Shown one piece after another: positions 2,493-19,767 of a DNA stretch of 21,308 nt. Source of the stretch: a virus. Lineage: Duplodnaviria; Heunggongvirae; Uroviricota; Caudoviricetes. Position 1 is the first letter of the stretch; every line of letters starts with the position of its first letter. The notes beneath the pieces are model-generated. The model was not told the DNA's origin, did not search any database, and was given only the letters and a program-made list of their open reading frames with translations. The stretch lies in IMG/VR virus record IMGVR_UViG_3300007747_000074, positions 1 to 21,308 of that record. One strand, given 5' to 3'. Both the position numbers and the translations under genes were made by a program.

Positions 2493-2795
2493 TTACCAGT
2501 CGTTCCCGGAGGGTGAAATAATCCCGTTCAGCGGTGTCTGCCAGTCGGGGGGAGGCTGCATTATCCACGCCGGAGGCGGTGGTGGCTTCACGCACTGACC
2601 ATCGAGCGCAGCAACATCACGCTGACGCATCTGCATGTCAGTAATTGCCGCGTTCGCCAGCTTCAGTTCTCTGGCATTTTTGTCGCGCTGTTCTTTGTAG
2701 GCGATGGCGTTATCACGGTAATGATTAACACCCCATGACAGGCAGACGACGATGCAGATAACCAGAGCGGAGATAATCGCGGTTACTCTGCTCAT
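2493..2795 (-). pseudogene. Rz/Rz1 spanin remnant: Rz N-terminus fused in frame to Rz1 C-terminus (rzpR-like)
   Basis: First ~65 aa ([33 protein letters not shown]) resemble lambda Rz, then the frame continues into the proline-rich Rz1-type C-terminus ([30 protein letters not shown]); Rz coiled-coil/C-terminal domain and Rz1 signal peptide/lipobox are absent; 4-nt overlap with the endolysin stop. Confidence 0.7.
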
Positions 2796-5290: not shown

Positions 5291-5581
5291 TCACAAATAT
5301 CCCTCCTTTCTCCAGATTTCTTGTGTGCGAAAAACACCTTCTGCATGCATCAGGCGTAATTCTTCTTTGGTGTAATCGCTGGTTTTTACCCGCCCGTCGA
5401 TTAGATCGTGGCATGAGCTACAGGCAATCGCCGCCTGCATATCGTGTGGTTTTGTCGCTGTTCCGCACGTTCCCGCCAGTCGGTAATGCGCCAGCACAGA
5501 CGTTTCCGGATCGTGATTGCAGTAGCCAGGAATTCTGACGGTGCACATCTGCCCCCGCGCCGCTTTACGTAAATCCACCAT
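5291..5581 (-). CDS. YbcO-like (DUF1364) putative Zn-binding nuclease, nin region
   Basis: 96 aa; MVDLRKAARGQMCTVRIPGYCNHDPETSVLAHYRLAG.CGT.TKP..ACSSCHD resembles DLP12 YbcO as I recall it (same length, conserved Cys/His); start overlaps the upstream gene stop (TAATG). Confidence 0.7.
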   Translation of the reverse strand: MVDLRKAARGQMCTVRIPGYCNHDPETSVLAHYRLAGTCGTATKPHDMQAAIACSSCHDLIDGRVKTSDYTKEELRLMHAEGVFRTQEIWRKEGYL

Positions 5582-6180
5582 TACGCAAACTCCAGCAGCT
5601 GCGCGGTCACATTTTCGACTTGTTCCGGAGAGGAAAATTTACGGAACAGAATCCAGTTCCACAGCACATTCAGAACAGATTTATAAACCTGCTGAAACTC
5701 GGTTTCGTCCATATTCGCAAAAGCGATGGATTTCGCCCGACGCCCATGGCTACCATCAGGATAAAGATGCTCGGTGTAAAATCCGGCCTGAATGGTTACC
5801 CACTCGCGGAAAGCCTCAAACGACTTTAGCAATGCCGTATCCCGGGTTCTGCGTGTCGCAACTGTATTCAGATATTGCTCTGCGGCTTCGCTCAGAGCTG
5901 GCGTATGTTCCCGGCCTACTGATTCACATAGGTAATCAACGAATCCTGAAACCAGCTTTCGTTCGCGAGGCGTGATCGCCCCACCGACCGGAGTCCAGTA
6001 ATCGAATCCCAGTTGCAGGAGTTTGAAAAAACGCTTGTGGAATGCGTAGTTACGCACACGCTTAAAGTCTGCGTGTATCCACTCGCCTATTTTGATTTGA
6101 TGCAAAAAATCGCAACTCTCCGGCGTCGCCGGGAGAAGTAGTCCAGAAGAGGTTTGTTTGACCAGTTGTATATGCGCCAT
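5581..6180 (-). CDS. Phage nin-region protein (DUF1367-like), function unknown
   Basis: 199-aa ORF translationally coupled to the YbcO-like gene; family name recalled from lambdoid prophage nin regions, not verified. Confidence 0.55.
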   Translation of the reverse strand: MAHIQLVKQTSSGLLLPATPESCDFLHQIKIGEWIHADFKRVRNYAFHKRFFKLLQLGFDYWTPVGGAITPRERKLVSGFVDYLCESVGREHTPALSEAAEQYLNTVATRRTRDTALLKSFEAFREWVTIQAGFYTEHLYPDGSHGRRAKSIAFANMDETEFQQVYKSVLNVLWNWILFRKFSSPEQVENVTAQLLEFA

Positions 6181-6992: not shown

Positions 6993-7028
6993 TTGACATA
7001 ACCCTCAAAAAGGTGCATTTATAATGCA
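6993..7028 (+). promoter_or_regulatory. Candidate promoter with NsrR-like inverted repeat overlapping the -10, upstream of the YeaR-like gene
   Basis: Perfect TTGACA (6993-6998) and TATAAT (7020-7025) but 21-bp spacer; inverted repeat TGCATT-tat-AATGCA (7014-7028) resembles the core of the NsrR site (ATGCATTT-N-AAATGCAT) as I recall it. Confidence 0.4.
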
Positions 7029-7047
7029 TGTTTTATGGGAGGTGGTT

Positions 7048-7389
7048 ATGACACACAAGAGAATTCCTAAAGACTGGGTAATCAAACGCTCAACTCCGTT
7101 CTTCACAAAAGAGAACGTACCTTCAGCGTTATTAACACATCATAATACAGCAGCAGGTGTTTTTGGACAGTTATGCGTGATGGAAGGTACTGTAACATAT
7201 TATGGTTTTGCTGATGAGAATGCTACTGAACCGGAGATAAAAGTAGTCATTAATGCTGGCGCTTTTGCAACAAGCCCACCACAATACTGGCACCGTGTTG
7301 AACTAAGCGATGATGCTCAGTTTAATATTAACTTTTGGGTAGCTCCAGACTTCTCAGGCGAAAAAGTCTATACCGCAAAAAAAGAATAG
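7048..7389 (+). CDS. YeaR-like DUF1971 protein (cargo gene)
   Basis: 113 aa from ATG 7048 (SD gggaggtgg at 7037-7045); RSTPFFTKENVPSALL...CVMEGTVTYYGFADENATEP...INAGAFATSPPQYWHRVE..DDAQFNINFWVAPDF parallels E. coli YeaR as I recall it; ORF first ATG is 7024. Confidence 0.7.
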   Translation: MTHKRIPKDWVIKRSTPFFTKENVPSALLTHHNTAAGVFGQLCVMEGTVTYYGFADENATEPEIKVVINAGAFATSPPQYWHRVELSDDAQFNINFWVAPDFSGEKVYTAKKE

Positions 7390-7471
7390 CCACGCTATAA
7401 ATATCTTATTAACTAGTCCCGGCGTGGTTCTTTCCCCGCTGGGTCTTTTACTCAGATTAGTAGTCTACGAA

Positions 7472-7579
7472 TCAGAGCCTCCGTCTGCCAGTTCGGATTC
7501 GTACCTCGCAGAGGTCTTTCCTCGTTACCAGTGCCGTCACTATGACGGTTAAACAGATGACGATCAGGGCGATTAACAT
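7472..7579 (-). pseudogene. hok-family toxin remnant (HokD/RelF-like), degenerate at both ends
   Basis: Hand translation from ATG (complement of 7577-7579): MLIALIVICLTVIVTALVTRKDLCEVRIRTG matches the HokD core, then diverges (GRRRL-stop); the +1 frame continues QTE... suggesting an indel; no HokD-type MKQQKA N-terminus (in-frame stop upstream). Confidence 0.5.
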
Positions 7580-8026
7580 CGTTAAACGTCTTGCAGGACG
7601 CGTAATGTTAACTGGGGCTTTTCTCTATCTACCTTTGGTGTTCATGCCCGAGGCAGATAGCCTCAAGCACCCACAGCAATTCTAACTATCCAATACATCA
7701 CTGCCAACACTTTAAACTCTTACCCTTTAAAACAAGAACAAAATTCAACCAATCAGCATTGGGCGTATACTCATATCCTAGAGAAAACAACTCTTTCTGT
7801 ACTATTTATATCCATATGATTTATAAGCATTTGCCACTTGCCATAGCCGCACAATGACAGTTTGCCATTTGATGTCAATAGATAAAAATGATCGTTTTCA
7901 ATGAGTTACATACTTGCAAGGCGTTGCACATCAGGCCCGATTACGTCAGTATCAAAAGATTACAGATGGTGCATTACTGCCACCTCGCCTTAATGTTCCA
8001 GAACTCTCCAACTTGAGGAATTTTCA

Positions 8027-8800
8027 ATGACATCCTTTCAATTATCTTTGATTTCTCGTGAAATTGACGGCGAAATAATACATTTACGTGCCAAAGATGG
8101 TTACATAAACGCCACATCAATGTGTAGAACTGCGGGCAAACTGCTCTCTGATTACACTAGACTCAAAACTACTCAAGAGTTTTTTGACGAATTATCACGC
8201 GATATGGGAATTCCCATATCGGAGTTAATTCAATCATTTAAAGGTGGAAGACCTGAAAACCAAGGGACATGGGTGCATCCTGACATCGCTATTAATCTAG
8301 CGCAGTGGCTATCGCCCAAATTTGCAGTCCAGGTTTCAAGATGGGTTCGTGAATGGATGTCAGGGGAAAGAACTACAGCAGAAATGCCTGTACATTTAAA
8401 ACGGTACATGGTTAATCGTAGTAGAATTCCTCACACGCACTTTTCTATTCTTAATGAACTGACATTCAACTTGGTTGCACCTCTTGAACAAGCAGGGTAC
8501 ACACTCCCAGAAAAAATGGTTCCTGACATTTCACAAGGAAGAGTATTTTCACAATGGTTAAGAGATAATAGAAACGTAGAACCCAAAACATTCCCTACCT
8601 ATGACCATGAATATCCCGATGGTCGCGTATACCCTGCAAGGCTGTACCCAAATGAATATTTAGCAGATTTCAAAGAACATTTTAACAATATTTGGTTGCC
8701 GCAATATGCCCCGAAATACTTCGCTGACCGGGACAAAAAGGCTCTCGCCTTGATTGAAAAAATTATGCTACCTAACCTCGATGGCAATGAACAGTTCTAA
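8027..8800 (+). CDS. KilA-N domain protein (antirepressor/Roi-like)
   Basis: 257-aa ORF, SD gagg about 9 nt upstream; N-terminal region (..INATSMCRTAGKLLSDYTRLKTTQEFFDEL..TWVHPDIAINLAQWLSPKFAVQVSRWV..) has the KilA-N/APSES-type signature; opposite strand to surrounding phage genes. Confidence 0.7.
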   Translation: MTSFQLSLISREIDGEIIHLRAKDGYINATSMCRTAGKLLSDYTRLKTTQEFFDELSRDMGIPISELIQSFKGGRPENQGTWVHPDIAINLAQWLSPKFAVQVSRWVREWMSGERTTAEMPVHLKRYMVNRSRIPHTHFSILNELTFNLVAPLEQAGYTLPEKMVPDISQGRVFSQWLRDNRNVEPKTFPTYDHEYPDGRVYPARLYPNEYLADFKEHFNNIWLPQYAPKYFADRDKKALALIEKIMLPNLDGNEQF

Positions 8801-10023: not shown

Positions 10024-10698
10024 TCACTTTTCCGATGCAACATGGCGGGAAGAATCAGTAATCTGTCGTACAATATCCCTGTGCTTGTTCAGCTCCCGCA
10101 GCGCGGCGCAGACACGCTCCCACTTCTGGACATGATTTTTCGCCCGACGCAGTTCGCGGTTTGCCATATGCAGTGATGGTAAAACCAGGTCATCCGCTCG
10201 CGTTTCAGTAAACGATGGCAGCGACTGCACAATGTCCGCCACAGTTTCTGTTTTAATATCTTCCTGTGTTGCAGCCTCCTGTACTGGTAACGCAACACCT
10301 GCGGGCTGAGGAAAGGCCTTACCAGCAGTTTCCGCTACCGATGCTGCTTTCGGCTCTGCTGGTAAATTATCGCCCGGTATGCAGTAACGAAATTTACCGC
10401 CCTGATTTACGCGAAGCAGACGACCTTTGCTGATTGCCATTGCCAGCGTTGAAGCCACTTTGCGTGATGTGGTACCAAACAATGTAGCCAGCTCATCCGC
10501 CGTTTGTGGTCCACGTTGTTCAATCGTCGCAGTTAAATCGCTCTCTGAAATTTTCGCGACTGTTGCCGTGGTAGTTTCTTCCGGCAGTTCTGCCGGCGCT
10601 GGCTGTTCCTGCTGAACGTTGTTATCAGCCACACGCCAGGTGTACGCGCTTTTATCAACGAAACCAGCCTTTTTCAGTTCCCATAGTTCGTTCAGCAC
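10024..10698 (-). CDS. Hypothetical phage protein (224 aa) with possible winged-helix segment
   Basis: ORF downstream of the DnaC-like gene; segment [32 protein letters not shown] resembles a wHTH; acidic/Ala-Pro-rich low-complexity middle. Confidence 0.5.
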
Positions 10699-19391: not shown

Positions 19392-19541
19392 ATGAGATAT
19401 GACAATGTTAAACCATGTCCATTTTGTGGTTGTCCATCAGTAACGGTGAAAGCCATTTCAGGATATTACCGAGCGAAGTGTAACGGATGCGAATCCCGAA
19501 CCGGTTATGGTGGAAGTGAAAAAGAAGCACTCGAACGATGA
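19392..19541 (+). CDS. ralR: Restriction-alleviation protein RalR/Lar-like, apparently truncated (49 aa) by an in-frame TGA
   Basis: Hand translation MRYDNVKPCPFCGCPSVTVKAISGYYRAKCNGCESRTGYGGSEKEALER-stop (TGA 19539-19541); downstream in the same frame is NKRTTGNNNGGVHV-stop (to 19586), the C-terminus of the 64-aa protein as I recall it. Confidence 0.55.
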   Translation: MRYDNVKPCPFCGCPSVTVKAISGYYRAKCNGCESRTGYGGSEKEALER

Positions 19542-19578: not shown

Positions 19579-19767
19579 ATGTATAAAATTACCGCCACTA
19601 TTGAAAAGGAAGGTGGCACTCCTACTAACTGGACAAGATATTCAAAATCTAAACTAACGAAATCAGAATGCGAAAAAATGCTCTCAGGTAAAAAAGAAGC
19701 AGGCGTTTCCAGAGAGCAGAAAGTAAAACTGATAAATTTTAATTGCGAGAAACTTCAGTCCTCGTGA
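19579..19767 (+). CDS. ydaC: YdaC-like small protein
   Basis: MYKITATIEKEGGTPTNWTRYSKSKLTKSECEKMLSGKKEAGVSREQKVKLINFNCEKLQSS; alternative upstream starts at 19567 and 19507 exist in the ORF; position between ralR and xis. Confidence 0.5.
   Translation: MYKITATIEKEGGTPTNWTRYSKSKLTKSECEKMLSGKKEAGVSREQKVKLINFNCEKLQSS

Follow-up and report, generated by a model that had tools for sequence, protein, structure and literature searches.

A hok locus in a Rac-like Escherichia coli prophage is very probably a non-functional relic of a hokW/sokW-type toxin-antitoxin module

Can a prophage locus that still encodes the core of a Hok toxin make either the toxin or its antisense antitoxin? The stretch of DNA analyzed here (the window; 21,308 nt) represents a Rac-like lambdoid prophage of E. 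coli with trkG, lysis genes, ydaV/ydaT, sieB, kilR, recE/recT, ralR, xisR, and intR, and the hok remnant lies in the nin-like region of this prophage. In working systems of the family, the stable hok mRNA is kept inert by pairing between a 5' element (tac) and a 3' element (fbi); trimming of the 3' end allows the mRNA to refold, after which translation of mok permits translation of the Hok membrane toxin (PMC9841398, PMC8621323). Sok, a short and unstable antisense RNA, binds the leader and brings about cleavage by RNase III (PMC9841398, PMC8621323). The hok/sok locus of R1 is a functional plasmid system for post-segregational killing, and its architecture (promoter, tac, mok/hok overlap, Sok, and fbi) is that inferred for the ancestor of the window locus. 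In contrast, five of seven defining features were lacking in the window copy, namely a complete ORF, an initiation region with mok, a Sok gene, fbi, and a sok match at the Rfam threshold. The locus is very probably a non-functional pseudogene relic of a hokW/sokW-type type I toxin-antitoxin module.

Loci related to a 521-nt query around the ORF were detected in 4,714 of 5,426 complete E. coli genomes, where they are annotated as hokD or Hok/Gef, and at least 107 records were 99% or more identical to the query. The number of related hok places per genome had a median of 2 and a maximum of 9. Three reference loci were used for comparison: that of E. coli 7/2, which is in the same type of prophage; that of phage 933W, in which hokW, mokW, and sokW are annotated; and hokD of E. 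coli K-12, which is in the Qin prophage. The coordinates of the features are collected in Table 1. Positions 1 to 88 of the window did not align in genomes of the YDC107 type and did align in strains E09, E28, and WP7-S18; in these three strains the match is spread over about 27 kb in four pieces, which implies about 5.5 kb of extra DNA inside the prophage.

Table 1. Features of the hok locus, its neighbors, and the three deletion sites in the window.
Feature	Position	Strand	Description
KilA-N gene	8027..8800	+	
hok mRNA promoter	7679..7707	-	-35 TTGGCA (7707..7702), 17-nt spacer, -10 TAGAAT (7684..7679)
hok mRNA 5' leader, 92 nt	7581..7672	-	5'-terminal hairpin and half of second hairpin retained
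sok 3' remnant, 42 nt	7581..7622	+	distal half of terminator hairpin and GGGGCUUUU tail
93-nt deletion (junction)	7580/7581	.	hok start, mok, and 5' part of sok absent relative to otherwise identical genomes; missing DNA is ATTAATCTGAGGCCATATCTATGCGACACATAGAGATTAGCCTCTTACGGACCGAAAGGTCAAGGAGAAGCAGGCTATGAAGCAGCAAAAGGC
Hok-core ORF, 35 codons	7472..7579	-	Hok codons 7-37, then out-of-frame RRRL and stop
Decayed C-terminal part of hok and proximal 3' UTR	7425..7487	-	-1 frameshift, then -2 indel, GAA to TAA, and -3 indel; same sequence in 7/2 and more than 100 other genomes
DUF1971/TehB-like (YeaR-like) gene	7024..7389	+	convergent with Hok ORF
DUF1367 gene	5581..6180	-	
103-nt deletion	2599/2600		removes SD, start, and signal peptide/lipobox of embedded Rz1 (o-spanin) lipoprotein
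23-nt deletion	10716/10717		frameshifts DUF1627 gene about 46 nt past its start; ORF 10024..10698 (-)

The minus-strand ORF was read from the ORF list and re-translated as MLIALIVICLTVIVTALVTRKDLCEVRIRTGRRRL, a peptide of 35 aa. It matched the Pfam family HOK_GEF (PF01848) with E=7.4e-16, which is well outside chance expectation; the score was 57.9 bits (cut-off, 22), and the match extends over only positions 2-34 of the 42-position profile. The features of Hok/Gef homology, a transmembrane helix and the conserved R-K-x-L-C-E, were found in the peptide, and the helix and RKDLCEVRIRTG both precede RRRL. At the DNA level, the ORF shared 96.8% identity with hokW of 933W (codons 7-37) and was invariant with respect to K-12 hokD across most of the core, and this homology settles the family identity of the ORF. 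The original prediction had placed a HokD/RelF core on the minus strand beside a YeaR-like gene and had described it as part of a decaying hok/sok module; the Pfam match, the position of the DUF1971/TehB-like gene, and the alignments to the hokW, hokD, and 7/2 loci all agree with this description. Similarity to the hok loci was strong, and an intact Hok frame was not found. A complete Hok frame runs to about 50 aa, from a basic N-terminus to a conserved periplasmic tail, and the ORF in the window has 35 aa and is without codons 1-6. The predicted absence of an MKQQKA-type N-terminus and the predicted loss of the C-terminus through a frameshift, with the QTE motif continuing in the +1 frame, were both borne out: there is no other start codon in the upstream frame, and the +1 frame reads NPNWQTEALIRRLLI followed by a stop codon.

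The missing N-terminus appears from the alignments to be due to a single clean deletion of 93 nt rather than to gradual decay, as the sequences on either side of the gap were 100% identical to those of the relatives. The content of the missing DNA was mapped through the annotation of 933W (mokW start, hokW start, and sokW 5' end). It contains the mok-like ORF with its ATG, the AAGGAGAAGCAGGCTATG segment, the hok Shine-Dalgarno sequence AAGGAG, the hok ATG, and codons 1-6, together with the 5' 27-29 nt of sok and about 35 nt upstream of the sok start, in which the sok promoter must be located. A Shine-Dalgarno sequence and ATG coupled to an overlapping mok are thus gone from the window locus. 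In the bases that precede the ATG at 7579, CAAGACGTTTAACG, no Shine-Dalgarno motif was detected, and this ATG is paired with an upstream CAU in the predicted minimum free energy (MFE) fold. An intact Hok reading frame or an alternative start was ruled out, since no ATG, GTG, or TTG occurs in the same frame upstream of 7579 before a stop codon. The sequence TTAATC occurs at both ends of the gap; a deletion between these direct repeats was rejected as its origin, since it predicts a junction ending in AACATTAATCGCC and the junction observed ends in AACGATGTTAATCGCC. Microhomology at the junction is 1 nt only.

The C-terminal coding region contains a different set of changes. A -1 frameshift was found at about 7487, where relatives read GGT/CCAG and the window reads GGCAG. 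In the alignment to 933W this is followed by a deletion of 2 nt, a change of GAA to TAA, and a deletion of 3 nt, so restoration of the frame at 7487 alone would not rescue the C-terminus. The third frame still reads FVDY-stop-SE-stop, a ghost of the HokW ending FVDYESEK-stop. This ghost, the indels, and the in-frame TAA together are the signature of a pseudogene and not of a divergent, functional C-terminus. Over the last 60 nt or so (7486..7425) identity to 933W fell to 73.6%, and the alignment has 10 gap columns there. The homology to hok loci stops near 7425, and the stop codon of the DUF1971 gene then follows at 7389.

Both 933W and K-12 hokD have ATCCTCAACGCACCC 47 nt past the stop codon, and this sequence is the fbi element because it is complementary to the 5' end of the mRNA, GGGUGCUUGAGG. 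No fbi-like complement of the mRNA 5' end was detected within 480 nt downstream in either the window or the 7/2 allele when up to three errors were allowed, and the window locus is thus without the 3' element. The C-terminal damage is common, base for base, to 7/2, YDC107, and more than 100 complete E. coli genomes; in genomes with this state, a 41-aa "Hok/Gef family protein" (WP_001445775.1; MKQQKA...RTGRRRL) is annotated. The presence of identical sequence in at least 107 complete genomes means that the C-terminal frameshift is real and that resequencing is unnecessary. WP_001445775.1 was without a pseudogene flag in the two RefSeq records examined (L001, 3397..3522; L005, 7987..8112).

In a promoter scan, the retained hok promoter matched the consensus at 10 of 12 positions, and it places the transcript start at about 7672. 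E. coli 7/2 has the same site. Position 1 of the Rfam model RF01794 falls 7 nt downstream of the promoter. The leader was 95.7% identical to that of 933W, and its 5'-terminal hairpin, which begins GGGUGCUUGAGG, is the tac element by homology. This first hairpin is present in the predicted MFE fold, so that both the hok promoter and the tac hairpin are retained; folding of the retained leader gave z = -2.9. Between the hok promoter and the DUF1971 gene no terminator-like site was predicted.

The original prediction had also suggested that sok-like or mok-like elements could remain in 7580-7700. This was only partly correct. The surviving elements are the hok promoter, the leader, and 42 nt at the 3' end of sok; the start of mok, the hok initiation region, and the sok 5' end with its promoter segment are gone. 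The sok remnant was mapped by alignment from the 71-nt sokW misc_RNA of phage 933W, and 42 of those 71 nt are left, without a promoter of their own. RF01794 (sok), with a gathering score of 59, covers the leader between mRNA +1 and the hok AUG. Its scores were 113.5 bits in 933W, 101.5 bits in 7/2, and 52 bits in the window. At the gathering threshold sok was not matched anywhere in the window, and RalA was the only RNA found. In a permissive run, the sub-threshold match of 52 bits aligned with high posterior probability over leader positions 1-59 and model positions 1 to about 70, and its 3' half is a forced alignment. The loss of the sok promoter is deduced from the annotated 5' end of sokW in 933W, which falls in the deletion, and not from promoter prediction. 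The Sok promoter of the intact 7/2 allele was itself unflagged by the consensus scan; a candidate seen by eye in 7/2 (TTGACC-N18-TAATCT) matches the -10 consensus at 3 of 6 positions, which is under the scan rule.

By descent, the locus is a member of the Hok/Gef family, of the hokW/hokD type. The closest intact homolog is hokW/mokW/sokW of 933W and Sp5 (VT2-Sakai), which is an accessory module of lambdoid phages as the window locus is; experiments have shown that hokW and sokW of Sp5 work together as a type I toxin-antitoxin system (PMC8621323). The 933W locus has a 71-nt sokW, the mokW start, the hokW Shine-Dalgarno sequence and ATG, a 51-aa Hok that ends in QTEVAVFVDYESEK, and an fbi-like element, whereas, of these parts, the window keeps only 42 nt at the 3' end of sok. 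The 41-aa allele of 7/2, YDC107, and other genomes is identical base for base to the window on either side of the gap and has the same frameshifted C-terminus, the same absence of fbi, and the same DUF1971 and KilA-N neighbors. It differs in that it keeps the 93 nt, and with them a 19-codon mok-like ORF, a full Sok equivalent, and the MKQQKA start. In 7/2 the TGA of the mok-like ORF (L001, 3341..3400) overlaps the hok ATG (CUAUGA), whereas the annotation of 933W makes mokW an in-frame extension of hokW at the N-terminus, which means that the mok arrangement varies among very close hok loci.

The K-12 hokD (relF) locus encodes the same Hok protein core in nearly identical DNA and is also a prophage copy that has lost part of its regulation. 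It is damaged at the opposite end: the 51-aa coding region and the fbi-like element are intact, and homology ends just upstream of the Shine-Dalgarno sequence, where relE abuts, so that the leader, mok, and sok are missing by rearrangement. Chromosomal and prophage hok loci that have been inactivated by rearrangement, insertion, or point mutation have long been known in E. coli. The window copy adds one more example beside K-12 hokD, and the locus is an ordinary relic of a known family, neither a working system nor a new one.

The comparisons are consistent with decay in two stages. The first stage, which over 100 E. coli genomes share, would have brought the -1 frameshift, the indels, and the nonsense codon into the last 15 or so codons of hok, leaving a product of 41 aa, and the 3' UTR with fbi would have been replaced by DNA that leads into the convergent DUF1971 gene. 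In the stage confined to the window, the 93-nt deletion would have taken the mok ORF, the hok Shine-Dalgarno sequence, the ATG, codons 1-6, and the 5' recognition end of Sok with its promoter segment. The remaining output would be at most a non-coding transcript that starts at about 7672, carries the 5' hairpin, and runs antisense into the DUF1971 gene.

The literature on R1 mutants bears on what such an allele could do. Premature stops at 18 of the 20 stop-mutable codons of R1 hok abolish toxicity, as do loss of the stop codon, a C-terminal FLAG tag, and the substitutions M46I and Y48N, and mutations of the mok start codon block translation of hok (PMC9841398). These mutants and the anatomy of the locus lead us to infer that toxin activity had already been lost in the 41-aa allele and that neither Hok nor Sok is made from the window copy; the anatomy was observed directly, and transcription and lack of toxicity are expected from it. 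As a counterpoint, when Hok is overexpressed, single alanine substitutions of conserved residues leave toxicity in place (bioRxiv 10.1101/2025.08.07.668861), so that the C-terminal requirements may be looser than the chromosomal screen of R1 suggests. The same recent survey raises the matter of degeneration among chromosomal Hok sequences (bioRxiv 10.1101/2025.08.07.668861). Some transcript is likely, given the intact hok promoter. The toxicity of Hok lies mostly in its transmembrane segment; this segment is intact, and a 35- or 41-aa peptide could therefore harm membranes if it were made.

Two readings would give the remnant a function. The 35-aa ORF might be a Hok-like membrane toxin with a shortened N-terminus, or a small membrane protein, translated from the transcript of the hok promoter. 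The intact transmembrane core, the intact RKDLCEVRIRTG motif, and the intact upstream promoter speak for such a product, and yet its ATG lies in a predicted stem, with neither a Shine-Dalgarno sequence nor a mok for translational coupling. The peptide has also lost the basic N-terminus (MKQQK), and RRRL has replaced the whole periplasmic tail, when R1 hok loses toxicity with nearly every premature stop and with any alteration of the C-terminus (PMC9841398). Remnants of the ancestral C-terminal codons in other frames, among them an in-frame TAA, are further marks of a pseudogene, and we regard a functional 35-aa product as extremely unlikely. It is very improbable, if slightly less so, that the promoter and leader now serve as a regulatory non-coding RNA, either antisense over the DUF1971 gene or as a decoy for the Sok RNAs of other loci. 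In favor are the intact promoter without a terminator-like site before the DUF1971 gene, the stable folding of the leader, the 42 nt of it that are complementary to the 3' part of Sok, and the related hok places of E. coli genomes (median of 2, maximum of 9). However, the proposal is purely inferential, and the deletion has removed the leader segment to which the Sok 5' end pairs, leaving only the stretch opposite the Sok terminator hairpin. In the R1 system, Sok recognition starts at the Sok 5' end. The arrangement is also unconserved, as the junction is unique with respect to the 5,426 complete E. coli genomes. The dead relic of a hokW/sokW-type module accounts for the locus better than either function does.

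A further question is whether the 93-nt gap belongs to the prophage at all. Compared with E. coli YDC107, the window had no mismatches over 21,220 nt and three clean deletions of 103, 93, and 23 nt, which are its only differences from otherwise identical genomes. The 103-nt deletion joins codons 1-65 of Rz in frame to the PPPPP-rich C-terminus of Rz1, which gives a 100-aa ORF (2493..2795, minus strand). All three gaps could be artefacts of assembly or preparation, in which case the real locus would be the common allele, with an intact Sok, an intact leader, and a crippled 41-aa Hok; that allele could possibly act as an orphan-antitoxin or anti-addiction module. We consider an artefact somewhat unlikely, though it has several points in its favor. 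Three clean deletions stand against a background without a single mismatch, and spontaneous deletions do not usually show so little microhomology (0-1 nt at the three junctions). The 40-mers across the three junctions, that of hok included, all went unmatched in the 5,426 complete E. coli genomes. A 30-mer across the hok junction likewise had no match in the contig collections of genomes, viruses, and metagenomes. The novel ORFs created by the deletions, including the Rz-Rz1 fusion, were not on record by exact look-up, and the 35-aa ORF was on record only where the end of a contig cuts the gene. Conversely, private deletions in prophages do occur, all three could be present in a single strain that is not in the databases, and the typical errors of short- and long-read assembly do not produce clean deletions of 23-103 nt in unique sequence.

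If the deletions are instead real and selected, they may represent a very recent, targeted domestication of the Rac-like prophage, in which membrane-damaging genes were disabled without any point substitution. Each of the three deletions strikes a prophage gene near its 5' end; even so, we judge domestication of this kind very improbable. Were it true, the intact hok promoter and leader might persist as a non-coding transcript. The verdict of a dead hok/sok relic for the locus as given holds whether the deletions are private or artefactual, and other features of the window, such as the apparent Rz-Rz1 fusion, need to be read in the light of the three private deletions.

The common allele also has a bearing on annotation. 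Because the 41-aa allele is a frameshifted relic without fbi and is listed as Hok/Gef, counts of hok loci that are based on annotation overstate the number of functional toxins. The window contains a second type I pair that is apparently intact. The RalA sRNA (19585..19763, minus strand) was detected with RF02694 at 225 bits against a gathering score of 170, and it adjoins the ORF of the 49-aa RalR toxin (19392..19541, plus strand), which is annotated as ralR in YDC107.
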